A DNA stretch of 64,000 nt, taken from the NCBI GenBank assembly GCA_034530615.2, contig JAVRCV020000006.1, positions 123,125-187,124 of the forward strand, written 5' to 3'. This stretch comes from Aulosira sp. ZfuVER01 (GTDB lineage: Bacteria; Cyanobacteriota; Cyanobacteriia; Cyanobacteriales; Nostocaceae). The notes beneath the pieces were generated by a model that had not been told where the DNA came from, searched no databases, and saw only the letters and a program-made list of their open reading frames with translations. The translations under genes were made by a program, and so were the position numbers. Below are positions 39,107-57,008 of this stretch, in pieces. Position 1 is the stretch's first letter; each line of letters opens with the position of its first letter.

Positions 39107-39547
39107 TTAACTCTGGGAGTTTGAAGTAACCAGTTCTGGTAAGGTAGCTTCTAACTTCAGGCAGTTAGCACCATCTACTTGCAACTGGTACTCTACCTTA
39201 TCCATCAAACGATTCATAATCAGCCAGCCATAGCCACCTTCTTGTTTTTCTAGAGGGTTAGGTGCTAAGTAAGTAGACATATCGAAGCCTTCACCATAGT
39301 CCCACACTTCTAAAGCCAGATCCCGATTTTTCAGTTCTAAACGTAGTAAAACTGGCAAATTAGCTTGTTCCTTGTGGGCATGACGTACCACATTAGAGTA
39401 GGCTTCAACCAAAGCTAGCCGCAAACGACTGGATTGCCGTGACCAATCTACGGATTCTCCTAGCTGGATTTTCAAGCATCCGAGCAACCAGTTTTCGACG
39501 ATGTTTAAAAAATTTAAATCACTTGGTACGTGTAGCTCACTTTTCAT
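39107..39547 (-). CDS. RsbW-like anti-sigma factor / Ser kinase (HmpW-like)
   Basis: LVEAYSNVVRHAH, WDYGEGF, EGGYGW. Confidence 0.88.
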   Translation of the reverse strand: MKSELHVPSDLNFLNIVENWLLGCLKIQLGESVDWSRQSSRLRLALVEAYSNVVRHAHKEQANLPVLLRLELKNRDLALEVWDYGEGFDMSTYLAPNPLEKQEGGYGWLIMNRLMDKVEYQLQVDGANCLKLEATLPELVTSNSQS

Positions 39548-39550
39548 TAC

Positions 39551-41224
39551 TTACAAGACCTCCAATGAAAGTATGGTTTGATCGTCTTCTTGAACTGGGT
39601 TGTTCGCTTGGATGCGAGTGAGTAAATTGCTAAGAGAAAGTGGTTTTGGTTCTTCTTGCAAAAGTTGCCAAAGACCGTCTTGATTTAGCATAGAGCGGCT
39701 AAATGGTTGACTGCCATCTTCAACATTTTTACAGTTAAATACATTATTTGATACCATCGCCTCAGTAATTCCATCACTTGCTAAAAGCAAGGTATCATTA
39801 GAATTCAGTAATAAGCGACCAGACTCTGCTTGCCACTTAGGTAAGATACCTAAGGGAACACCACGTACTTTTAGATAATTGGGTTGTGCATCCGCAGTCG
39901 TAGGTGACGACCAAAGTAAGGGATAGATATGACCAGCATTGGCATAGACTAGTTCTTTCGTGCTTGGGCTATAACACGCTAGGACGAGAGTGATGAAGCA
40001 ATTGTTGCCAATCAAGTCGTCGCACATAGCATGATTAAGATTCTGCATGACTATATTCGGCTCGGCTGGCGTTTCTTGAGATAATTCTCGGCGTAACACC
40101 GAAATAGCACTAGCCATAAACAAAGCGGCTGGGACGCCTTTACCGGAAACGTCACCCACTGCTATCCACAAGTTCCCTTTGGGATGAACAAACACTTCAA
40201 AAAAATCCCCTCCTACTTCTCGTGCGGCATAGCAGGAAGCTTGCACTTTCACACCCTTAATTTCAGGTAAACTTTGTCGTAGCAGGTTATTTTGAATTTG
40301 ACGGGCAACTTCTAATTCAGTTCTGATTTGCTGCTGTTTTTCTTGAAGACGCTGATATAGTTTTGCTTGGGACAGGGCTAAGGCTGCTTGTTCGGCAACG
40401 CCTGCAATCAGTTGAATGTCTTCATCTTGCCACGAATGATCGCTTCCTCTTTGGTAAAGGACAAGAACAGCAAGTAGGTGTTGCTGGTAAGATAAGGGCA
40501 CAACTAGTTGGTGAAAAGGGTTCCCTTCATCTGTACCTTGAGTGAGTTGATAATGACGAGTTTCCAGCACTTTTTCAATTAAAGAGCCGGGGTCAAAGAC
40601 GAAACTTGAGCTATTGAAATTAGGATCTTGGTAGGAGAAGAGATCTGATGTTAGACAATCCCCTTCTACTGGTTTGAGGAAGCAACAAGTAGTTTCAAAG
40701 GTTTCTCCAATAGTTGCAACAATTTTTTGCAACATACTGTCGTAGTCTAACGACTCTCGGATTGCTGTAGTTACAGCATTAAACAAAGATTCTCGCCGCA
40801 AGGCACGGCGCAACTCTTGGGTGCGTTGCTTAACCAAACGATAGGTATCAGTAGCTTGTTCAACAAGCGCTTTCAGACGTTGAGGATTCCAAGGTTTGGT
40901 AATGTACTTAAATACCTGACCTGAGTTAATTGCATCAACCAAATCTTCAACATCAGTAAAACCAGTCAGCAAAATGCGGATTGTATCTGGAAAACGCTCG
41001 ACTGTGCGGCTGAGGAATTCAGTGCCGTTCATTTCTGGCATTCTTTGGTCAGAAATAATCACCGCCATCTCGCCTTCTTTGTCCAATATTTCCAGGGCAC
41101 TCAGGGCATGATTGGCTTGATATACTTCAAAATCTCGTCTAAAAGTGCGGTAGAGTAAATCCAAGTTATCCGGCTCATCATCTACCACCATGAGCTTGAG
41201 TTTGCATACCTCTATTTCAGTCAT
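39551..41224 (-). CDS. REC-GAF-PP2C (SpoIIE/RsbU-like) phosphatase (HmpU-like)
   Basis: VVDDEPD, SDQRMP; VGGDFF, GDVSGKG, NAGH, SDGITE, QEDDQT. Confidence 0.9.
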   Translation of the reverse strand: MTEIEVCKLKLMVVDDEPDNLDLLYRTFRRDFEVYQANHALSALEILDKEGEMAVIISDQRMPEMNGTEFLSRTVERFPDTIRILLTGFTDVEDLVDAINSGQVFKYITKPWNPQRLKALVEQATDTYRLVKQRTQELRRALRRESLFNAVTTAIRESLDYDSMLQKIVATIGETFETTCCFLKPVEGDCLTSDLFSYQDPNFNSSSFVFDPGSLIEKVLETRHYQLTQGTDEGNPFHQLVVPLSYQQHLLAVLVLYQRGSDHSWQDEDIQLIAGVAEQAALALSQAKLYQRLQEKQQQIRTELEVARQIQNNLLRQSLPEIKGVKVQASCYAAREVGGDFFEVFVHPKGNLWIAVGDVSGKGVPAALFMASAISVLRRELSQETPAEPNIVMQNLNHAMCDDLIGNNCFITLVLACYSPSTKELVYANAGHIYPLLWSSPTTADAQPNYLKVRGVPLGILPKWQAESGRLLLNSNDTLLLASDGITEAMVSNNVFNCKNVEDGSQPFSRSMLNQDGLWQLLQEEPKPLSLSNLLTRIQANNPVQEDDQTILSLEVL

Positions 41225-41412
41225 ATTTGACTTTAACTTCTTAAATACTTGAATGACAAATTAGTGTAATTTTTATCACACTTAATAAATAATGGCATAA
41301 TCAAAAACTAACTCTAATAGAGAAGTTACCCACTTTTCATTGAATATTTATGTCAAAGCTGTAAATTTCTCTGGGAATACACCAGCAGGAAGCTACATTT
41401 CTAGAGTTAGAC

Positions 41413-42129
41413 CTATCCTACTAACCCAGAACGCAAGGCGCGAACTGCGGCTTGAGTGCGATCGTCAGCACATAACTTGTTCAAAATATTCCGGACGTGA
41501 GTTTTCACTGTACCTACTGTGATATAAAGTCTTTCTGCGATCACTGCATTGCTGCAACCTTCGACAATCAACTGTAACACTTCTAATTCTCTCTCCGTGA
41601 GGATGTAAGGATCTATATGCTCCTGAGTCTCCCCAGACTCAACAGTGCTAAAGGTATTTTTTGTGTTTAATGATGCTGCATCTTGTTTAGCTGGATTTTG
41701 TTGTGCTTGTTGTAATACAATCCTGGCGATCGCCGGATCGATCCAAGCGTTGCCATTGTAAGTTACTCTTACTGCTTCCAGCAAATTATCAAATTTAATA
41801 TCTTTCATACAGTAAGAATCAGCCCCAGCGGCGAAAGCGGCTAGTACTGCTTCCTTATTATCACGTAATGTCAAGATTAACACCTTAGTTTTTAACTCTG
41901 CCCCATTAGTAGACTTCAACTCACGTGTCAGCTCAATGCCATCTTTATCGGGTAAGCCAATGTCCACAATCGCAATATCCGGCTGTAGTGTTTTGATAAT
42001 TTTCAGCCCTTCTGCAGCATTGGCAGCTTCTCCGACAACTTCAATTTCTTCTTTTTGCAGTAGTGCTGTCCGAATACCCACACGGGTGAGGTCATGATCT
42101 TCAATTAGAGCAATCCGAATTCTACTCAT
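41413..42129 (-). CDS. NarL/LuxR-family response regulator
   Basis: EDH, VDIGLP; LTERELEVL...TVKTHVRNILNKL. Confidence 0.93.
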   Translation of the reverse strand: MSRIRIALIEDHDLTRVGIRTALLQKEEIEVVGEAANAAEGLKIIKTLQPDIAIVDIGLPDKDGIELTRELKSTNGAELKTKVLILTLRDNKEAVLAAFAAGADSYCMKDIKFDNLLEAVRVTYNGNAWIDPAIARIVLQQAQQNPAKQDAASLNTKNTFSTVESGETQEHIDPYILTERELEVLQLIVEGCSNAVIAERLYITVGTVKTHVRNILNKLCADDRTQAAVRALRSGLVG

Positions 42130-42831
42130 AGTCAACTTCCGCCCGTTACACTACCTTAACTGTAAAACCGAGTTTATTCAAAACCTATACAAGATGCAGT
42201 TGTAAGAGATTTGTACAAAACTATAGAACTATTTTGTGAATAAAGTTGACACGCAAAGGCGTTACCAGTACCCACAAGCATTTACTTCTTTAGGGAACAT
42301 TACTATTCAATAATAGAATCAAGGGGATATACCCTAAATATCAGCGTTTGGGATCAACTACTTGAATTATGCTTGCTATTAATATAAGTTGACAAAATTT
42401 CATAGATAGAGCAAGCTATCCCCAATATGGTTGGATTGCAGGTGAACTATATTTCCCCCAAGTGACTTTGGCTAGAGTAGCCTCCCCAAAAGGAGATAGC
42501 TGATGAATAATCACCTTATAAGAATGCTAGCTGAAAACCTTAGGCGTTGAAGCTCCCAATGAGAGATGCTCAAGGGCTGAAGCCAAGTAATTTTCTGAAA
42601 GTGTTTACTGTAGTTGTCTACCTATCTTGTATAAGATAAATTTATTTCTATATATAATCAATATACAGTCCTCATAAAACTTTTTAAATCACTTTCAGAT
42701 GATAATTTACTTAGTTTTATCGATGTCATAAACGAATTACTTGTGGCTAAAATCACAACAGGCAATATATTAAAAAATTTGATAAACTAACGTTCGAGAG
42801 ACTGTGGTGTGAGGCTAAGTAAAAATCAGCT

Positions 42832-44532: not shown

Positions 44533-44673
44533 ATACAGCAGATTGCAACTAAGTGAGGTACACCAGCTTTATATCCTCTATTTCGGAAAACCTTGATTTC
44601 ATTAATCCTAAATTAAATACAACAGGTTTACACAATTTTGGGCTGTACCTCATAAACCTGAAATACGCTGTAT
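44533..44673. mobile_element. MITE-like element, about 141 bp, 30-bp imperfect TIRs, TA at both ends
   Basis: ATACAGCAGATTGCAACTAAGTGAGGTACA versus reverse-complemented end ATACAGCGTATTTCAGGTTTATGAGGTACA. Confidence 0.65.
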
Positions 44674-44684
44674 GTCTTCAATTC

Positions 44685-46172
44685 CTATATCTTTCCTATT
44701 AAAGGAGATGGTTGACTATGTATACAGTTTTGAGATGAGTCTGGAAACTCGCAGCAGCTAGGCCCGGACAAATTTACCTGCCGAATTGGGATCTCAATGA
44801 CAAACTCTGCACCTTTTCCTGGGCTGGAGATACAGTACAACGAGCCATTATGTTTTTCTACGACAATCTGATGGCTAATTGACATCCCTAACCCTGTTCC
44901 TTTGCCCGCAGGTTTAGTTGTAAAGAAGGGGTCAAACAATCGCTTTTGGACTGTTTCTGTGATTCCTGGCCCATTATCAGCAATCCGAATGGCAATGCGT
45001 TCCCCAAAGGGGTTGCCGTAGGCATCGCCTCCCACAACTTGCGTATGAATTTGAATCATCGGTGATATGGTAAAACTACTACGCTCATCTGCCATCATCT
45101 CTTCCAGAGCCTCAATGGCATTGCTGAGGATGTTCATAAACACCTGGTTCATTTTTCCCACACAGCACTCAACTAGAGGTAAATTCCCATAATCTTTAAT
45201 TACTTGAATATCTGGATAGCCTGGTTTTGCCTTCAAACGATGGTCGATGATCATCAGTGTACTATTTAACCCATCGTGAATATCCACTGTTTTGACTTCA
45301 GCTTCATCATGACGGGAGAAGTTGCGGAAGGCTCGAACGATTTCCTGAATCCGTTGTGTCCCAACAGTCATTGAAGAGACAATTTTTAGTAAATCTCCTC
45401 TGAGAAAATCTAGGTCAACTTCTTTTGATTTATGAACAATATCTGGGGCGGGATTAGGGTAATGAATTTGGTAGAGTTTAATCATTGCTAGCAAGTCCTG
45501 AATATAAGAACTAGCGTGTTCAAGATTGCCATATATAAAATTGATTGGATTATTAATTTCGTGTGCAACACCTGCTACTAATTGACCCAGGGTAGCTAAT
45601 TTTTCTGTCTGGATCATTTTGACTTGAGCCTTTTTCAGATCTTCCAGTGCTTGAGAGAGTTCCTTTGTCCTTTCTGCTACCCGTTGCTCTAACTCTTGAG
45701 TTAGCTTCTGTAAAGCTAATTCTGCCGCAACTCGTTCTTCAATTTCTTGTTGAAGAAGTGCATTTTGCTTCTCCAATGCTGCACTCATATTTTGCAGATG
45801 CAAATGAATTTTAATCCGGGCTAAAACCTCCGCTTGTTGAAATGGTTTAGTAATGTAATCTACAGCACCTAAAGACAGACCTTTGACTTTATCTACTGTG
45901 TCAGCAAGAGCAGTCATGAAAATTATCGGAATATGTTTTGTTTTAGGATTTGCTTTCAATCGAGAGCAGGTTTCAAATCCATCAATTCCTGGCATCATGA
46001 CATCTAATAAAATCAGTTCTGGGGGGTCATATTCAACTTGCTTAATTGCACTTTCCCCAGTAGTTGCAACTGCCACATCAAATCTGGCATCTGTTATAGC
46101 TTCCGAGAGTACTTCTAAGTTTGTAGGAGTATCATCAACAATCAATATTAAATTTGTGTTTAAATTTTGCAT
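44685..46172 (-). CDS. REC-histidine kinase hybrid
   Basis: VDDTPTN, LDVMMPG; AHEINNP, NILSNA, DNGPG, FFTTK, GKGTGLG. Confidence 0.92.
   Translation of the reverse strand: MQNLNTNLILIVDDTPTNLEVLSEAITDARFDVAVATTGESAIKQVEYDPPELILLDVMMPGIDGFETCSRLKANPKTKHIPIIFMTALADTVDKVKGLSLGAVDYITKPFQQAEVLARIKIHLHLQNMSAALEKQNALLQQEIEERVAAELALQKLTQELEQRVAERTKELSQALEDLKKAQVKMIQTEKLATLGQLVAGVAHEINNPINFIYGNLEHASSYIQDLLAMIKLYQIHYPNPAPDIVHKSKEVDLDFLRGDLLKIVSSMTVGTQRIQEIVRAFRNFSRHDEAEVKTVDIHDGLNSTLMIIDHRLKAKPGYPDIQVIKDYGNLPLVECCVGKMNQVFMNILSNAIEALEEMMADERSSFTISPMIQIHTQVVGGDAYGNPFGERIAIRIADNGPGITETVQKRLFDPFFTTKPAGKGTGLGMSISHQIVVEKHNGSLYCISSPGKGAEFVIEIPIRQVNLSGPSCCEFPDSSQNCIHSQPSPLIGKI
45000..45023. mobile_element. 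24-nt SDR-like element inserted into a HIP1 site
   Basis: GCG[TTCCCCAAAGGGGTTGCCGTAGGC]ATCGC; excision restores GCGATCGC. Confidence 0.75.
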
Positions 46173-46464
46173 TTTTTTAAATTATTTTTTAAAAACTATT
46201 TGCCAAACAAATGAAATTTTAATTTCATAAACATCAAAGTCAAACAATCCAAAATTTACCAATACATATCCAGACTTTTAATTTATTTCATGTATCAATA
46301 ATTTGTTTAAGTTCCGTTAATTCCAAGTTTAACTATAGTAGTTTCAGGATGCCTTATTTTGCCTTTATTTGGAACATTTGTATACATAATATCTCCAAAA
46401 AATTAGGAGAATACGAAGAGTATTTCTAGTTTCAAAAATTGCTAAAAAAACTGATCCTCGTTTT

Positions 46465-49248
46465 TTAAACATTGATATATTTTTCTATAATAGCTTGGAT
46501 TTTTTCTATTTGGAATTTTTCAGATAACTGTTGAATCTCCTGAATAAATAGCCTATAACTATTATCTTTTTGATCTAATTCTTTTAAATAATTTTGTATG
46601 GCTTTGATTCGACCTTTTAAAGCCAGTTCATATAACTGATTTAGTTCTTCGACCGGAGGAATTACTATTTCTTCTTTTGAAATTAATAAAGATGTCGAAT
46701 TGCTCTCATAAATCCATTCTAGCTCTAGATAAGTCTGTAATTTTTCAAATAGTTCAGATGCTTGCACAGGCTTAGGAAGAAAGTCATCACCACCTGCATC
46801 TAAACTCTTCTGTTTATCAGAATCAAACACACTGGCTGATGAGACAATTATCTTTAAATCTTTCCACTCAGGAGAATTTCGCAAATTTTGCATTATATCC
46901 AATCCATTCATTACTGGCATATTAAGATCGGTAATAATCAAGTTAGGCAAAAACTTAGCAATTTTGATTAATCCTTCTTGACAATCTTCTGCCTCTAAAA
47001 TTTCAAAACCTAGTGGTTCCAGTAGATTAACTAATACAGAGCGATTTTCCCAACTATCGTCTATTACCAAAATTTTTCTTTTATCACCTTTAAAACCAAC
47101 AATCGTTCCCTGTTGAGCAACTTTAGATTTATCTGCCCATTCTTGTGCTTCGGGGATTTCTACATCAAACCAAAAGATGCTACAATGTTCTAATTGGCTT
47201 TTGACTTCTATATTGCTGCCCATCATAGCAACAATTTTATGGCTGATAGCTAAACCTAATCCGGTTCCTTCTGATTGTTTTTTAATGTTGCCTACTTGTT
47301 CAAAAGGTAAAAAGATTTTTTCTAGTTGTTCACTAGTCATACCTACACCAGTATCTTCCACTAGAAAGCGAATTTTGTAAGTTGATGTTTTGGCTTGATA
47401 ACTATGATTAATCTGCTGAATTTTGACTATAAATTTGACTATACCTTTTTCCGTAAACTTAATTGCATTACCCAGTAGATTAATCAAAACTTGCCGTAAA
47501 CGTTTTTCATCAGCTTCGATACCTAGTGGTAATTTCTCATCGGGTTGATAGATAAATTCCAAACCCTTTTGCTCAGCTTTAATTCGACAAATTTCAGAAA
47601 CGGCTTGGAGAAAAGAAGGAAAATGAAAACTTGTAGGATGCAATTCCATTTTCCGGGCTTCGATTTTTGAGAGGTCAAGAATATCGTTAATGAGAGTCAA
47701 GAGGTGTGAGCCACATTGGTTAATAATATCAATGCCTTTGTGCTGTTTTTCTGTCAGATTTTTCGCAGTGTGCAAGATTTGGGCATAGCCCAAAATCCCG
47801 TTGAGAGGTGTACGCAGTTCATGACTCATGTTGGCGAGAAATTCACTCTTGGCTATGTTGGCACTATCAGCAGCTTCTTTAGCTTCTTTCAGTTCGGTGG
47901 TGCGTTCCTCAACCCTGATTTCTAATTCTTCATTAGTCTTTGCCAAGACAGTGAAAGACTCGCGCAACTGCTGTGCCATACGGTTAAACGATTGCGAGAG
48001 CACACTCAGTTCATCGACATGGGACTCTTCTACTTGTTGCTCAAGTTTACCATCCGCGATCGCTTCAGATGCCTGACTCAATTTCAGAATAGGTTGGGTA
48101 ATCCAGCGAGATGTATAAACCCCTAACGCAGTTGCAAGTCCTAAAGCTAACAGGCACAACATGATTGTTGTACGAGTATTGGCATGAATTTGAGCCATAA
48201 AGTCTGCTTCAGGAACTACGACTACCATTAGCCAATCGAGTCCCCACTCATCGCGCCAAGGAGTGACTTGAACAAACTGACGCTTACTCTTATGTAAAAA
48301 ATCAATTTGCTGAAAATTTTGAATTTTATTAAAATTGCCAAACCGTTCAATTAAATGTTGTGCAGTTGCTTGGATTAAAGGATCTTTGCTATCGGATACA
48401 GAAAGGCGTTGGGGTTTTTCATTTTTGACTGTGAAGGGTTGCTCATCACTAGAACTAGCAATCAATTGACCATTATGTTCAATAATGAAGGTTTTTCCCG
48501 AACGGCTGACTTTCAATTGCCGCAAGAAATCACTAATCTGTGAAAGGCGTTGTTCCGCAGCAATTACAGCCAGCAGATTGCGATTAGAGTCATAGATAGG
48601 ATGACTAGCTGCAATAGATAAGTTAAATGGCGGTACTAACCAGTTGTAAACCGGACTCCAAACAGATTTGCCTTGTTTTACAGCCTCTGCATACCACCCC
48701 TCATTCTTGGCAATAAATTCTCCATTATCTTGAATAATCTTTGTGCGTTTGCCTTGCCTATCGGTTGCCCAACTATATAAATGAGTACTGCCTTTGTAAT
48801 CTTTTGGAGATAATTCATCAATAGTAATGCGATTGTCACCAAAGAGATATCCAGAGGCAATATAATCACCTGTTTGGAAACCCAAGAGAATATAGCCGAT
48901 ATCAAATGATTGCAGTCGCTTCCAGAAAAACTGTCCTAGCTGTTGTTTGTTTTGTAAATCCAACAAGCCCATATCAATCACATCTGAAGTAAGCAGAACA
49001 ACCTTTTGAGGAACTTGCATATAGCTATCTAGCTGCTGATCTATGCGCCCACTTACTTCTGTCAGCAATCGGCCTGCCAATTCATTAACAGCTTTTTGTC
49101 CATTGCGTAGCGATAGATATCCCGTTAAACCTACAGCTGCAACAATTTGCAGTACAAAAGGTACCACAAGAATTAAACGTAGTGAGATTTTTTTTGATTT
49201 GCCGTCTTGATACATCTGGCTAGGAAGCAGCTTTGATAACATACCCAA
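46465..49248 (-). CDS. TM-dCache-TM-HAMP-HisKA-HATPase-REC hybrid sensor kinase
   Basis: Two TMs around a Cache-like region (WY, WSPVY); [51 protein letters not shown]. Confidence 0.92.
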
Positions 49249-49287
49249 TTTTGTGCTTTGCTCAAATCTTCATGCCTTTCTATCTCT

Positions 49288-49296
49288 AGGATTCCC
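49288..49296 (-). promoter_or_regulatory. Candidate SigJ-type element GGGAATCCT
   Basis: One mismatch to GGGAATACT, 40 bp upstream of the kinase ATG. Confidence 0.3.
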
Positions 49297-49336
49297 AAAT
49301 TTAGTTTGAAGTTTATATCGTGAAAATATTTATTAA

Positions 49337-49993
49337 CTATTTGAAGCGCATTATCAGAGCAAAAAAGTTTTTTGAATTAAGAATTTTTCTGCTGCTGCGT
49401 TTTTTGTAGGCGGTCGCTTGATTGACCATTTTAGGACGAAGAATAAATATAACGATAGTAGCAGTAGAAAAAAATAAATAGAGGGGATAGGCTGAAAGCG
49501 CAAAAGACCAATTTTTGAGAGCAAGAAGATTAAGGGTATGTGCCGATAGAAAAATTGTCCATGTTAAAGGATCTTCTGTATGTGGTTGATAGTATGACTT
49601 TCTGATTGTTGGTAATGCACCTAGAAAATCAATGCCTATATTGATTAAAAGGGCAATTATTGGAGAGCTAAACTGCCACCAGAGTAAAAGACTAATACCA
49701 GCAATTATTAGACACCCTCGATCAAAGCGGTTCCAACCACCTTCACCATATTTAAGAGCAACAATGGCGATCGCTAAATGACCAATTGCTGAACAAACTG
49801 GAACCCATATCGTGTTTACAGCCCCAGAGGAGTAATAGCTGGAGCACAGAATGAGACCGACGATCGCCCAAATCCACCAAGTTGTTCTATTGGGTCGAGT
49901 TTTTCTTTGATAGATACTAACTAGATAGGGTAGAAAACCTAATAGGGAGAGAAAACCTGCAACTACACCAATTACCGCTTGCCAACTAAACAT
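49337..49993 (-). CDS. About 7-TM membrane protein, PQ-loop/SWEET-like internal repeat
   Basis: LGFLPYLVSIYQRKTRPNRTTW repeated as LGALPTIRKSYYQPHTEDPLTW. Confidence 0.6.
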   Translation of the reverse strand: MFSWQAVIGVVAGFLSLLGFLPYLVSIYQRKTRPNRTTWWIWAIVGLILCSSYYSSGAVNTIWVPVCSAIGHLAIAIVALKYGEGGWNRFDRGCLIIAGISLLLWWQFSSPIIALLINIGIDFLGALPTIRKSYYQPHTEDPLTWTIFLSAHTLNLLALKNWSFALSAYPLYLFFSTATIVIFILRPKMVNQATAYKKRSSRKILNSKNFFALIMRFK

Positions 49994-50112
49994 TATTTCT
50001 GATTAATTTCCCATTTAGTTTATGGATTAGCGGTAAATGCACCACAAGAGAAGCTTGAAATCAACCACAGGAAACGAGCGAATTGGTCTATGCACCCTCA
50101 AGCGATCGCCAA

Positions 50113-50991
50113 TTAAACAGATATCAAATTCGCTGTCTTTGAATTCTCCAGCATTGCCAAACATTCACGATAAATTTCTCGAAACAAGTGCTGCTGTAAC
50201 TCTACAAATGCTTGATAGCCTTCAAGCACCCACTCGATAATTTGTTGTTCTGATTCAGTCCGATAGCGAACTACCATATTCAGCGCTTCTAAAACATGTA
50301 CAAAGTGCTTGGCTTCTGCACCAGATCCTTCATGCTTGCCGTGAATCACGACATAACACCAAGGATCGTAACGATGACCTCGAATTGGGACAGGAGTAGT
50401 CTGTTCTTTGAGATAGCGATCGAATCCGACTCCTTGGTTTTCATAACGAATAATCATATCAAGTAGGGCATATTCGCGATCGCCCAGCATTTCCGAAGCT
50501 GTATGAAATCCGATGGCTCGAATTAAAGAAACAACATCACCTGGTTTTCCTTGATAAGCAGTCATCACATCCTGGACAATCTCATCTAACCATGCAGGAA
50601 CCTGAGAAAATTGGTTGCGCTCATAGATAGAAAGTCTTGCATAGTCTCCTGCTGTTGTTAGCAGCAGTTGAGCTAGTTCACGGTGTGTAATTCCGTAGGC
50701 TCCTTCATCAGAGGCCGCAATCATAATCTCAGCAGAAATTTGGAATCCTCGATCTGCCTCTTCATTTACCAAAATTTTCGAGTCGGTAAATAAATAGCGC
50801 GACATGGCAATAGAACTCGCTAGCCTAGAGATCACAGCAGATGCATAGCCGTTGAAATATGTGTAACGTTGCAAGAACAGATAAAACGAAATAGGATTCT
50901 GTGCTGCTAAACGCATCGTTGATCCTATTGTCTTCTCTAGGCAAGAAAAATCTAGGAATTCTTTGAAAAATGTTTCTGAAAAATGTGACAT
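50113..50991 (-). CDS. Putative heme-oxygenase-like diiron oxidase (HDO; CADD/PqqC/TenA-like fold)
   Basis: Helical-looking protein with E96-x6-H103, E167, H217/H220...E226-x2-H229. Confidence 0.55.
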   Translation of the reverse strand: MSHFSETFFKEFLDFSCLEKTIGSTMRLAAQNPISFYLFLQRYTYFNGYASAVISRLASSIAMSRYLFTDSKILVNEEADRGFQISAEIMIAASDEGAYGITHRELAQLLLTTAGDYARLSIYERNQFSQVPAWLDEIVQDVMTAYQGKPGDVVSLIRAIGFHTASEMLGDREYALLDMIIRYENQGVGFDRYLKEQTTPVPIRGHRYDPWCYVVIHGKHEGSGAEAKHFVHVLEALNMVVRYRTESEQQIIEWVLEGYQAFVELQQHLFREIYRECLAMLENSKTANLISV

Positions 50992-51620
50992 AATTTACCT
51001 TGTATTAACAAGAAAAATCATTAAAACTCTCATCAAACCAAGCTAAATATCTATTGTTGGAAATATCAGCAAGGTGGGCTAGGTACAACTACCCTCTTTT
51101 TAAATTGACATTGGCTTTCTCTATAAAGCATGAGAAAGCACAATAAAAAATGTTATTCCTCATCTTATTCATCAATCTTGCTTGAGCGCCTGGGTAATGA
51201 CACTGGATACAGTTAAAAACGCTTTATCAACTATTTTGTTAGGTATTTCGCTAATTTCTACGTAATTTCCCGCTTAAATAAAACGTTATTATTTAAAAAT
51301 AATTGAAGTTATTGATAACACTTTTAAGATTCTAATAATCAAAAACCTTAAAAATTAATTGTAATAAAACTTCATTAAATATGATTGAAAAATACAAAAA
51401 GTTTATATAAAACGTGATAGTAGAGCCAGGAAAAATTTTCCCTTTTTTTTACACCATCTCCCTGAGGAATGGATTAACAGTATTTCATGGTGTGAGGCAA
51501 TTGTAGAGAATCCCGGTGAATAGGGAGAAGGTATTTGGCGAAATTCTTTGAAAACAGCGTGATTCTCAATTTATGTGAATTGAGAAAGTTTGTTATTAGC
51601 AATTTATCAACGATATAGCC

Positions 51621-52174
51621 ATGACCACAACTCTTAGAAGAGGCGAAAGCGGCAATCAGTGGGATCGGTTTTCTCAATGGATTACTAGCACCGAAAATCG
51701 GCTTTATATTGGCTGGTTTGGTGTTTTAATGCTTCCCACTTTGTTGACCGCTACCATTTTTTATTGCCGCACCACCTGTCGATATTGACGGTATTCGGGA
51801 ACCAGTTTCTGGTTCTTTGCTCTACGGTAATAACATCATTACTGGTGCTGTTGTACCTACATCCAACGCCATCGGTTTGCACTTCTACCCGCTTTGGGAA
51901 GCAGCTTCGATGGATAAATGGCTCTACAACGGCGGTCCTTATCAGCTCATTGTCTTGTATCAGCACTATGGCATTTAATTTAAATGGGTTCAATTTTAAC
52001 CAATCAGTGCTGGATTCTCAAGGTCGTGTAGTTGGTACGTGGGTAGATGTAGTCAACCGTGCCAACCTAGGTATTGAAGTGATGCACGAGCGGAATGCTC
52101 ATAACTTCCCGCTAGATTTGGCTGGAGGTGAGGTAGTGCCTGTAGCTTTGCTTAATTCTGCAACTCATGGTTAA
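51621..52174 (+). pseudogene. psbA: psbA (D1) pseudogene with frameshift and large internal deletion
   Basis: [17 protein letters not shown]...[10 protein letters not shown]; frameshift near 51760; [14 protein letters not shown]...GGPYQLIVL joined near 51957 to [10 protein letters not shown]...[14 protein letters not shown]. Confidence 0.95.
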
Positions 52175-54963: not shown

Positions 54964-56361
54964 ATGAAAATCAAGCGCCTGAAAATGCAATCCTTCCGTG
55001 GAATTGGGGATTTGACGCTAGATTTCGATGAAATCGAGCCAACAGTACTGATTGGTATCAACGGTGTAGGTAAATCGACTATTCTTGATTGTTTAGCTAT
55101 TCTTCTATCACAAGTTACAGGGCAGATTCAGGACTCTCTTGATGCGTTACGTTTTTTTAGTAACTTAGATGTTATGAATGGACGTGACAGAACGAAAAAT
55201 ACAATTACTGTTTTACTAGACTTCCAAGAATTAACATGGTCGCTCTCGGATGGACAATCAACAAATAATATTGATGCTAATCCTTTTAACTTGGAAGCAT
55301 ATATTCAAGAAATTTCTGAGTTAGAAATAAAAGTTAGAAGTAAGCTTAAAAATTATACAGAGTCCAAGAGCCTGTTACTACAAATTGAGAATCTTCGTAA
55401 GAGGATAGAAACTGAAATACGTAGCAAATTAGTAGAAGATTTAAAAACAGTCCTTGAAAAGTTAAAACATCAGTTAGAAACCATTCCTAATGCTAATATT
55501 CCTTTAGCAGTCTACTATCCAGTCAATCGTGCTGTTATTGATATGCCTCTTGAGATTTCAGAAGCATCTTCGTTTAAACAAGTAGATGCTTATGAGCAGT
55601 CACTTAAGGGAGGAAGAATTGATTTCAAAAAATTTTTTGAGTGGTTTAGAAATCGAGAAGATCTAGAGAATGAAAAGCGGAGAGATAGTCCTAATTATCG
55701 AGATAAACACTTAGAAGCTGTAAGGCAGGCAATTGTATTATTAATACCAGATTTTTCTAACTTACGTGTTGAGCGTTCTCCTCTGCGAATGACTGTGAAA
55801 AAACAAGGTGAAGAACTCATTGTTAATCAGCTATCTGATGGTGAGAAATGCTTATTAGCAATGGTAGGAGATTTAGCAAGACGTTTGGCAATAGCTAACC
55901 CAGGTTTATCAGAACCACTCCAAGGTAGTGGAGTTATTTTAATTGATGAAATTGAATTACACTTACACCCAAAATGGCAACGAGAAATTATTACAGCTTT
56001 AACTAGAACGTTCCCCAATTGTCAATTTATTGTGACTACTCATTCCCCACAGGTTATTAGCCATGTCAAACCTGAAGGAATTTATATTTTAGAAAAGACT
56101 GATAATGGTGTTATCGCCAAACGTCCAGAAAGTTCTTTTGGCAGAGATAGCAATCGTATTCTAGAAGATCTCATGGATGTTCCAGAACGTCCACAAGAAA
56201 TCAAGACAAGTCTGTTAGAATTGTTTAGACTGATTGATGCAGGAAATCTCGAAGGCGCAAGAAAATTGCGTCAAGAGTTAGCAGCCGAGATAGGAGCAGA
56301 TGAACCGGAGTTTGTTCGAGCAGATGTACTCATCCGCCGGAAGGAAATTCTCAATCGATGA
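54964..56361 (+). CDS. ptuA: ABC-type ATPase, PtuA-like (Septu / retron Ec78 effector family)
   Basis: SFRGI, GINGVGKST, LSDGEK, GDLARRL, LIDEIELHLHPKWQ, TTHSPQ, GRDSNRIL. Confidence 0.8.
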   Translation: MKIKRLKMQSFRGIGDLTLDFDEIEPTVLIGINGVGKSTILDCLAILLSQVTGQIQDSLDALRFFSNLDVMNGRDRTKNTITVLLDFQELTWSLSDGQSTNNIDANPFNLEAYIQEISELEIKVRSKLKNYTESKSLLLQIENLRKRIETEIRSKLVEDLKTVLEKLKHQLETIPNANIPLAVYYPVNRAVIDMPLEISEASSFKQVDAYEQSLKGGRIDFKKFFEWFRNREDLENEKRRDSPNYRDKHLEAVRQAIVLLIPDFSNLRVERSPLRMTVKKQGEELIVNQLSDGEKCLLAMVGDLARRLAIANPGLSEPLQGSGVILIDEIELHLHPKWQREIITALTRTFPNCQFIVTTHSPQVISHVKPEGIYILEKTDNGVIAKRPESSFGRDSNRILEDLMDVPERPQEIKTSLLELFRLIDAGNLEGARKLRQELAAEIGADEPEFVRADVLIRRKEILNR

Positions 56362-57008
56362 AGTACATCAAAAAGAATCATGAGCCGAAAAAGTTCAGTG
56401 ATTGGAAGGCTTTAGAAAATGATGATTGGAAACCTAATTGGGATGATAATTTCCAAAAACCTGAAAAAGTAATTGTGCATGATTCTCTGCTACAAGAACA
56501 GGGATATATTTGTTCTTATTGTGGAATGCGGATTGCAAGAGCAATGAGTCATATAGAACATCTCAAGCCTCGTACTACCTATCCACATTTGGCGCTAGAT
56601 TACACAAATCTTATCGCTTCATGTCAAGGAGAAAGTGAAGAACCGCCTCCCGTTCCCGTTCATTGTGGGCATCAGAAAAAGTATTGGTACGATGAGCATC
56701 TGATGGTTTCACCTCTGAAAGTAAACTGCGCTGAGTGCTTTAAATATCCTGCATCCGGTGAAATTCAACCAACAGATGATCCAGCTAAACAAGCAGCTGC
56801 TGAAACAACAATTGAGAAGCTAGCGCTCAATATTAACAAGCTGCAAAATATGCGGAAAGTAGCAATTGATGCTGCATTACTGGATATTGAAGATTTTACT
56901 GATGCAGAAATACAGCAGCTTGCTGAAGGTTATGAGCAACTTGATATTAACGGACAATATACTCCGTTTTGTGCTGCAATTATCTATTTACTGAAGAATT
57001 ATTTTTAA
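56358..57008 (+). CDS. ptuB: HNH endonuclease, PtuB-like
   Basis: EQGYICSYC, HIEHLKP, LDYTNL.ASC, HCG..K; ATGA overlap with the ATPase. Confidence 0.8.
   Translation: MKYIKKNHEPKKFSDWKALENDDWKPNWDDNFQKPEKVIVHDSLLQEQGYICSYCGMRIARAMSHIEHLKPRTTYPHLALDYTNLIASCQGESEEPPPVPVHCGHQKKYWYDEHLMVSPLKVNCAECFKYPASGEIQPTDDPAKQAAAETTIEKLALNINKLQNMRKVAIDAALLDIEDFTDAEIQQLAEGYEQLDINGQYTPFCAAIIYLLKNYF

Follow-up and report, generated by a model that had tools for sequence, protein, structure and literature searches.

In the agr and ComQXPA pherotype loci, the signal-making gene and the N-terminal sensing part of its receptor co-vary, while the kinase core and the relay remain constant. For cyanobacteria, we know of no cell-to-cell signalling with identified synthase-receptor pairs. 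In the ham/pvf/mgo clusters, a nonribosomal peptide synthetase (NRPS) of the adenylation-carrier-reductase (A-T-R) type and HamA, a heme-oxygenase-like diiron oxidase (HDO), build valdiazen, a diffusible signal derived from an amino acid (PMC5878181), and Microcoleus vaginatus exhibits quorum-sensing-like signalling by γ-aminobutyric acid (GABA) and glutamate, the sensory mechanism of which is called unknown in a 2026 review (PMC13594678). Here we describe a four-gene cassette at positions 44685-50991 of a 64,000-nucleotide stretch of contig JAVRCV020000006.1 from Aulosira sp. ZfuVER01 (the whole stretch is called the window below), which encodes a predicted HDO, a predicted PQ-loop/SWEET-fold membrane protein, a hybrid sensor kinase with a Cache domain, and a REC-kinase as relay. 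Our results show that, on a constant kinase chassis, the enzyme, the transporter and the sensor domain are replaced together by unrelated enzyme/sensor pairs. Genetically, this swap pattern bears the mark of pherotypes such as those of agr/ComQXP, and the cassette likely represents one dialect within an undescribed family of chemical signalling systems that both make and sense their signal. The literature searched, the coverage of which was incomplete, described neither the cassette nor the series of NRPS/sensor pairs.

The original prediction, made from the letters of this stretch, had placed four co-oriented genes here, and all four open reading frames (ORFs) were recovered on the minus strand: the diiron enzyme (292 aa, 50113-50991), the membrane protein (218 aa, 49337-49993), the 927-aa hybrid sensor kinase dCache_1-HAMP-HisKA(H476)-HATPase-REC(D774) at 46465-49248, and the 495-aa relay kinase REC(D57)-HisKA(H204)-HATPase at 44685-46172, separated by gaps of 119, 88, and 292 bp. 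Pfam confirmed the domain content of both kinases, with dCache_1 at 44.6 bits against a cut-off of 45, and detected no DNA-binding output domain in the relay. When the DNA of the site was compared with that of five congeners without a close copy of the enzyme, conservation ran from ftsE through the REC-kinase into the kinase core, as far as position 47932, and resumed beyond approximately 51100. Between these two boundaries the congeners have about 6 kb of different DNA, which encodes an adenylation-methyltransferase-carrier-reductase (A-MT-T-R) NRPS and, joined to the shared core, a dCache of another kind. The core (46465-47932) is constant across synthase alleles and shares 77-82% nucleotide identity with the NRPS-type congeners; the similarity ends at about 47932, in codon 439, and the remaining part of the kinase gene (47933-49248), encoding the periplasmic dCache_1, at about residues 46-360, and HAMP, is allele-specific. 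At the right boundary, nucleotide identity is about 80% over 51091-51956, and the intergenic region upstream of the cassette (51091-51620, minus strand) is homologous to the empty site and to the region that precedes the NRPS in the congeners; both the HDO gene and the NRPS gene have this upstream region in front of them. The relay kinase is common to all alleles, with 76-79% protein identity behind the NRPS alleles of the congeners.

The exchange recurs beyond this comparison. A different Cache domain sits on the orthologous core in 13 of 14 genomes of the same genus, with an A-MT-T-R NRPS upstream in all 13, and genomes G484, G592, and G097 have a third allele, which combines an A-T-R NRPS with a further type of dCache. 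In genome G008 the swap site is empty, and genome G009 carries an NRPS allele at the site and an HDO allele elsewhere. The core and relay of the window are closer to this HDO copy of G009 (86%) than to any NRPS copy (77-84%), from which we infer that the window lineage probably replaced an NRPS allele by the HDO allele. An enzyme gene lies upstream in each of the best 32 non-self core loci (47 weaker matches exist besides), namely 11 HDO, 18 A-MT-T-R, and 3 A-T-R genes, the link being looser in two of them, where the locus is rearranged (G030) or split over contig ends (G503). At the rearranged locus, the NRPS is inverted and the REC-kinase stands between the NRPS and the sensor kinase (L154). 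The cores of all allele types (n = 29) form one clade (support 99) against 14 own paralogues, and the allele types interleave on the core tree, with 11 changes against a minimum of 5. The original prediction overlooked this allele status of the cassette.

The co-variation of synthase and sensor on the constant core is strongest in the NRPS alleles and is seen only at block level for the HDO allele. The NRPS alleles carry three adenylation signatures, which read as those for glycine, for a variant similar to it, and for alanine. Among solved structures, LgrA, ABBFA_003403, and 5u89, presumably all specific for glycine, are the closest to the glycine type. Across 15 NRPS alleles, the signature groups are clades in the trees of the A-domain and of the sensor alike (support 100). 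The reductase domain, which is located between the A-domain and the sensor on the chromosome, rejects the Ala-type clade (approximately unbiased test, p-AU 5e-5), and the kinase core rejects both signature groups tested (p-AU 5e-5 and 0.0075). Two further sensors of the Ala clade carry the Ala-type signature, both being close kin of an earlier allele. The predicted substrate code of the NRPS and the sensor type match, while the intervening reductase and the core do not.

Like Staphylococcus agrBDCA and Bacillus ComQXPA, the cassette links a candidate synthase to its receptor, cognate in the genetic sense, and varies the sensing domain on a constant core. Unlike them, it has no peptide precursor, its alleles belong to unrelated enzyme families (HDO and NRPS), its sensor is a periplasmic dCache_1, and its downstream partner is a REC-kinase rather than a DNA-binding regulator. 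Among 149 small ORFs around 51 enzyme loci, no precursor candidate was conserved beyond near kin or the tails of neighbouring genes. The cassette would resemble agr/ComQXPA in its working and yet is not a member, because the search for a precursor peptide gave none and its alleles encode enzymes without kinship to each other. To our knowledge, a swap of wholly unrelated enzymes on one kinase core exceeds the agr/ComQXP pattern. The ham/pvf/mgo clusters share with our locus the NRPS and heme-oxygenase-like enzyme types, and HamA matches the model of our enzyme with Z 16.8; there both enzymes act in one pathway together with an AurF-like oxygenase, whereas here they are alternatives, each with a linked Cache receptor, and neither the ham/pvf/mgo enzyme nor the other solved HDOs have sequence-level similarity to the cassette enzyme. 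The GABA and glutamate of Microcoleus, which alter group behaviour of a cyanobacterium, are likewise small amine or amino-acid infochemicals; in contrast to them, the cassette offers a candidate synthase and receptor that are genetically paired and known from genes alone.

The heme-oxygenase-like diiron fold suggested by the original prediction agrees with the AlphaFold model of the enzyme, which was built from 115 sequences (pLDDT 90.9) and matches HrmI, Npun_F6505, BesC, HamA, UndA, CADD, FlcD, and PolF at Z 16-18, e.g., HrmI with Z 17.9 (root-mean-square deviation, rmsd, 3.2 over 217 aligned residues), BesC with 17.2 (2.9 over 212), and CADD with 16.5 (3.2 over 211). The HDO matches ranked above TenA and the true heme oxygenases, and the top Foldseek matches were all heme-oxygenase-like, none at E<=0.001. 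The residues E96, H103, E167, H217, H220, E226, and H229 all lie at the positions named beforehand. Six of them (E96, H103, E167, H217, E226, and H229) are invariant in 115/115 aligned homologues and fit the order E-H-E-H-(D/E)-H that defines HDOs (PMC11363339). H220, which had been proposed among the metal ligands, is variable, with His in only 73 of the 115, and was rejected in favour of H217. The six positions are kept in 110-116 of 119 sequences of a more distant set, mostly with the canonical spacing H-x3-E-x2-H, compared with which the window-type clade has five extra residues between H217 and E226. The predicted ligands lie on or adjoin helices of the model, and the fold match suggests that they cluster at one three-dimensional site.

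We predict from the fold alone that the enzyme is an HDO of an unnamed family. It shares the helical fold and the E-H-E-H-E-H ligand order with HrmI, BesC, UndA, CADD, FlcD, PolF, and AetD/SktA; unlike these named HDOs, it falls outside the PF14518 cut-offs, has the five-residue insert, and is not accompanied by a ligase, halogenase, or redox partner. The cyanobacterial HDOs AetD/SktA represent a different family (PMC11869266), AetD matching the model with Z 12.1. The enzyme had no relevant match in Pfam or NCBIfam and none to PF14518, which 3 of 100 distant relatives match under the cut-off, and searches of solved-structure sequences with the enzyme, its close alignment and its deep alignment found no HDO. 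The family is rare: strong matches were detected in 5 of 401 genomes of the phylum (a sixth match was spurious), and among 251 genomes of the family Nostocaceae a close copy is present in 14, with distant copies in 19 more. The enzyme and a distant relative gave no match to plasmids. The wider family takes in Gll2221 of Gloeobacter and a protein titled Woesearchaeota (P0260, P0321).

A PQ-loop/SWEET-like fold had also been proposed for the 218-aa protein, and the model (pLDDT 94.1) shows seven helices in the expected 3+1+3 arrangement. Its five best structural matches all belong to the PQ-loop/SWEET/KDEL-receptor group (Z 10.2-13.7), with cystinosin at 13.7 (rmsd 3.4 over 188), SWEET at 13.0, and the KDEL receptor at 10.2, followed by the next fold at 6.0, and its sequence profile gave a weak match to SemiSWEET (E 0.005). 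Unlike the members of this superfamily, the protein has LPY/LPT in place of the PQ dipeptide (P22 followed by Y, P128 followed by T), is a bacterial full-length form, and had no match in Pfam or NCBIfam. As for the two-fold LP...W repeat reported earlier, the motifs L21-P22 and L127-P128 and the Trp-rich helices after them are present, and the repeat rests on the predicted structure because a BLAST comparison of the two halves gives no alignment. The fold suggests that the protein moves a small solute. The KDEL receptor has the PQ-loop fold yet no role in solute transport. Proteins of this family with about 55% identity occur in records titled Patescibacteria (P0186, P0236). A small membrane protein beside Chamaesiphon-titled enzymes was considered as a further PQ-loop relative and rejected, no relationship being detectable.

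A dedicated receptor clade is borne out by the trees, from which the duplicates L001, L002, L057, L058, L068, and L070 and Cache matches shorter than 270 residues were left out: the Cache domains of the cassettes (n = 37) form a single clade (support 98) that excludes both 6 own paralogues and the 16 unlinked sequences most closely related to them, and they are likewise one clade against own paralogues alone (100/99). The pocket of the window receptor comprises E183-x-W185, Y201-N202-W203, and E232, with E183 and E232 present in 34/34 cassette receptors and N202 and W203 each in 33/34. Amino-acid sensors (dCache_1AA) bind the carboxylate of the ligand by an Arg, such as R126 of PctA, and the window receptor shares the W-Y, Y, and terminal acidic positions with dCache_1AA and amine-sensing dCache_1AM (10.1101/2023.04.06.535858). 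It differs from both in having E183 aligned with the carboxylate-binding Arg of three own paralogues and Glu for the terminal Asp, and neither motif fits cleanly. Its best solved match is McpX, a weak one (E 0.006); of the dCache_1AM motif, which includes an R/D insertion above the pocket, the aromatic and acidic positions are seen in the window receptor. The NRPS-linked sensor is nearest to dCache_1AM structures, the best solved relatives being the amine sensors PacA, 3LIB/3LI8, and McpX (same source). In the 251 family genomes, 14 of the best 30 Cache loci have the receptor pattern Y-N-[WL]...E, and these come from exactly the 14 genomes with a close enzyme. Unlinked sensors related to one or the other allele (L155-L159; L089, L091, L093, L095, L096, and L098-L108) could be listeners or could sense a common metabolite.

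The four genes also co-occur across genomes, as the original prediction had expected, and homologues of enzyme and transporter are linked to Cache kinases elsewhere. The scan covered 49 loci, 39 with an enzyme of at least 50% identity and 10 below, and linkage was counted only where downstream sequence reached at least 1.5 kb (transporter), 3 kb (Cache kinase), or 6 kb (REC-kinase). At loci with at least 50% enzyme identity, the enzyme has the transporter downstream in 34/35; a Cache kinase was counted in 30/34 and a close REC-kinase in 24/30. A gene of the fatty-acid desaturase family, overlooked in the original prediction, is inserted between enzyme and transporter in 18/35; no copy of it was found in the window genome or in 10 other genomes of its receptor subclade. 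The record titles name, among others, Nostoc, Rivularia, Gloeocapsa, Pleurocapsa, Waterburya, and Myxacorys. The outer flanks vary between loci. Four loci have no adjacent kinase despite sufficient sequence. In three of these genomes, which have an enzyme-desaturase-transporter set, a receptor of the same clade occurs at a different place, where it is joined to another kinase backbone; the fourth locus, L039, is the one without a same-clade receptor.

We consider it probable, at roughly 60%, that the cassette produces a small molecule and senses this same product. The enzyme may act as signal synthase, and the HDO would convert a common amino acid or a derivative to an amine-bearing product without a carboxylate. 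The PQ-loop-fold protein would carry this product across the inner membrane, presumably outwards to the periplasm, where the Cache domain would bind it and the hybrid kinase would relay to the REC-kinase, with a putative phosphoryl flow from H476 to D774 to D57 via an additional phosphotransfer step. We propose a small amine for two reasons: the alternative alleles are biosynthetic and occur with sensors of the amine type, and HDOs act mostly on amino acids (PMC13185094). By analogy to agr or ComQXPA, each allele may represent one signalling dialect (pherotype). A make-export-sense loop had been part of the original prediction, and its make-and-sense portion gains independent support from the NRPS/sensor swap at the same site, while the link to hormogonium-type regulatory genes was not upheld. 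A broader version of this proposal, to which we give slightly less than even odds, is that filamentous and baeocyte-forming cyanobacteria have a widespread and unrecognised quorum- or kin-sensing system that runs on one chassis. Unrelated enzymes, namely the diiron oxidase, alone or with the desaturase, and methylating reductive NRPSs that activate Gly or Ala, would each make a small amine of their own and be exchanged together with the cognate Cache domain; other strains would have listener receptors only, and the strain of the window would have switched from the NRPS dialect of its congeners to the diiron dialect.

Several observations weigh against these proposals. Below 50% identity, enzyme homologues are accompanied neither by a PQ-loop gene (0/9) nor by a Cache kinase (0/7), and L039, with an enzyme of 54% identity, has no transporter and no kinase, and no cognate receptor was found in that assembly. 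A transporter gene is missing from the NRPS alleles, which makes export a variable feature, five AM-type sensors (L155-L159) have no upstream NRPS, and no gene of the cassette encodes a transcription factor. E183 and W203 are not confined to cassettes, being kept in all 16 unlinked relatives, which have Q for N202 and, in 13 of 16, D for E232, the other 3 having E232 as well; the receptor subfamily can function without a linked enzyme because these relatives share E183, W203, and in some cases E232. Inside the HDO family, the trees of enzyme and sensor disagree. The correlation of enzyme and sensor distances (Mantel) is 0.55 after the core is removed, a value inflated by kinship and linkage, and such correlations are inseparable from physical linkage or kinship. 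Within the HDO family, the expected co-evolution of enzyme and Cache domain is seen at block level only. Presence of the desaturase is at best a possible marker of receptor subtype: the distance correlation is 0.40 after core removal, but independent pairs are not significant (median p 0.25), and L172-L174 and L018/L033 contradict the link. In the NRPS alleles, the MT domain only borders on rejecting the Ala group (p 0.05) and, like the R domain, does not reject the second code group, n is small, and L184, the third member with the variant signature, lies outside the sensor clade of its group.

Instead of a signal, the enzyme could make an effector, i.e., an antimetabolite, allelochemical, or chelator, the receptor monitoring the product of its own cell or of neighbours for feedback or self-protection with no kin counting or coordination. 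The same linkage, swapping, and synthase-sensor matching are predicted by this explanation, and the patchy distribution (strong matches in 5 of 401 genomes of the phylum) and the occurrence of unlinked listener sensors agree with it, as does the membership of many characterised HDOs in antibiotic or toxin pathways (PMC13185094, PMC11363339). We regard it as unlikely, in view of the relay, near which no transcription factor for the cluster is encoded, and of the predicted Gly/Ala NRPS products, of N-methylated aminoethanol or alaninol type, which would be very small and read by an amine-type receptor; moreover, no resistance or tailoring genes accompany the cassette besides the one optional desaturase. 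The reverse direction appears quite improbable, namely that an amine from the environment is recognised by the receptor, taken up by the PQ-loop protein, and then oxidised by the diiron enzyme, alone or together with the desaturase, either as a nitrogen source or to detoxify it. The alternative alleles that share the upstream region are NRPSs that adenylate, methylate, and reduce and are thus biosynthetic, as are the HDOs whose structures match, and related enzymes pair with exporters of the SMR family; in its favour, PQ-loop/SWEET folds are neutral as to direction, sister receptors occur without the enzyme, and the cassette contains no precursor or ligase genes beside the enzyme. That enzyme and sensor merely hitchhike as a contiguous block at a recombination hotspot, with a receptor ligand unrelated to the enzyme, would account for mosaic trees, since adjacent segments co-transfer, but is very improbable given the same gene order in many outer neighbourhoods across distant genera, the retention of the receptor when unlinked, and a match of A-domain and sensor that spans a non-matching intervening domain.

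The idea that every hybrid kinase of the window genome has an upstream synthase was rejected, as only 1 of 14 paralogue sites (C15:62116) has an evident biosynthetic cluster. This locus (L182:842-11031 in G000:C15) carries an AetD-related HDO (E 7e-53), a flavin monooxygenase, and a tryptophan halogenase, resembling the skt set (cf. PMC11869266), divergent from a Cache hybrid kinase and REC-kinase whose pocket likewise has Glu for Arg; the link of the skt-like cluster to the Cache kinase was found in 3 of 14 loci compared. More distant relatives of the cassette enzyme occur in other architectures. At L138-L141 (38-44% identity), the genes after the enzyme encode an SMR exporter (3/4), a binding protein of the NMT1 type, and a HAMP-GAF kinase; this arrangement parallels the cassette with another transporter and sensor, and L140 and L141 also adjoin malic enzyme. 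At L044-L047 and L049 (39-47%), it directly precedes a PatA-like, CheY, CheW, MCP, and CheA cluster, complete in 4/5 (L047 ends early) and in some cases with a 107-aa membrane gene upstream, and at L051-L055 (34-39%) it is located downstream of glycosyltransferase genes, the L051 homologue, judged by eye, being without most metal ligands and possibly a pseudo-enzyme. Cassettes L009, L023-L025, and L186-L188, and only these, stand directly behind a PfaD/carrier-reductase cluster resembling a glycolipid synthase. At L018-L022, L027, L032-L034, L038, and L056, a response regulator and a SpoIIE phosphatase lie downstream of the relay, followed, where the sequence reaches, by a DUF6272 protein and a STAS protein as candidate partner-switching output. 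In Pleurocapsales-titled loci, the partner switch after the relay suggests control of aggregation or lifestyle.

The flanks of the cassette partly agree with what had been foreseen. The ftsE neighbour is present in the window, and a homologue lies near the cassette at only 3 other loci among 50 cassette maps. A miniature inverted-repeat transposable element (MITE) at the ftsE boundary was claimed and receives weak support from an imperfect inverted repeat (44533-44673), a possible MITE remnant of 30 nt at 73%, one arm of which has 5 short matches elsewhere in the genome, in an intergenic stretch unlike that of the congeners. Past wecG-ftsE relative to the cassette, at 39107-42135, there are an RsbW-like kinase, a REC-GAF-phosphatase-like gene, and a NarL-type regulator; the RsbW-like and REC-GAF-phosphatase genes, previously taken for hormogonium-type regulators, score below every curated cut-off. 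A scan for promoters and terminators gave 16 sites against 23.2 in shuffled sequences, fewer than by chance. At 54964-57008, a gene for a 465-aa ATPase-like protein overlaps one for a 216-aa HNH-like protein, an arrangement that resembles a defence pair. On the other side of the cassette, the psbA pseudogene (51621-52174, plus strand) was found as described, with a frameshift after codon 48 and approximately codons 120-290 lost. Its intact orthologue at this site in the congeners (three copies) has W126/W260 and is of the D1-INT type (defined in PMC9740203), and three close intact psbA copies in the window genome are of the Y/F type; the strain seems to have lost D1-INT psbA.

The locus gives matched candidate pairs of synthase and receptor together with natural controls, i.e., congeners with other alleles, one genome with both and one with none. 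It also reveals a predicted new HDO family, the product of which could be fished out by its own receptor, and supplies a candidate substrate for a bacterial seven-helix protein of the PQ-loop fold. For the uncharacterised Cache subfamily, the pairing of enzyme and sensor may provide a route to ligand assignment.

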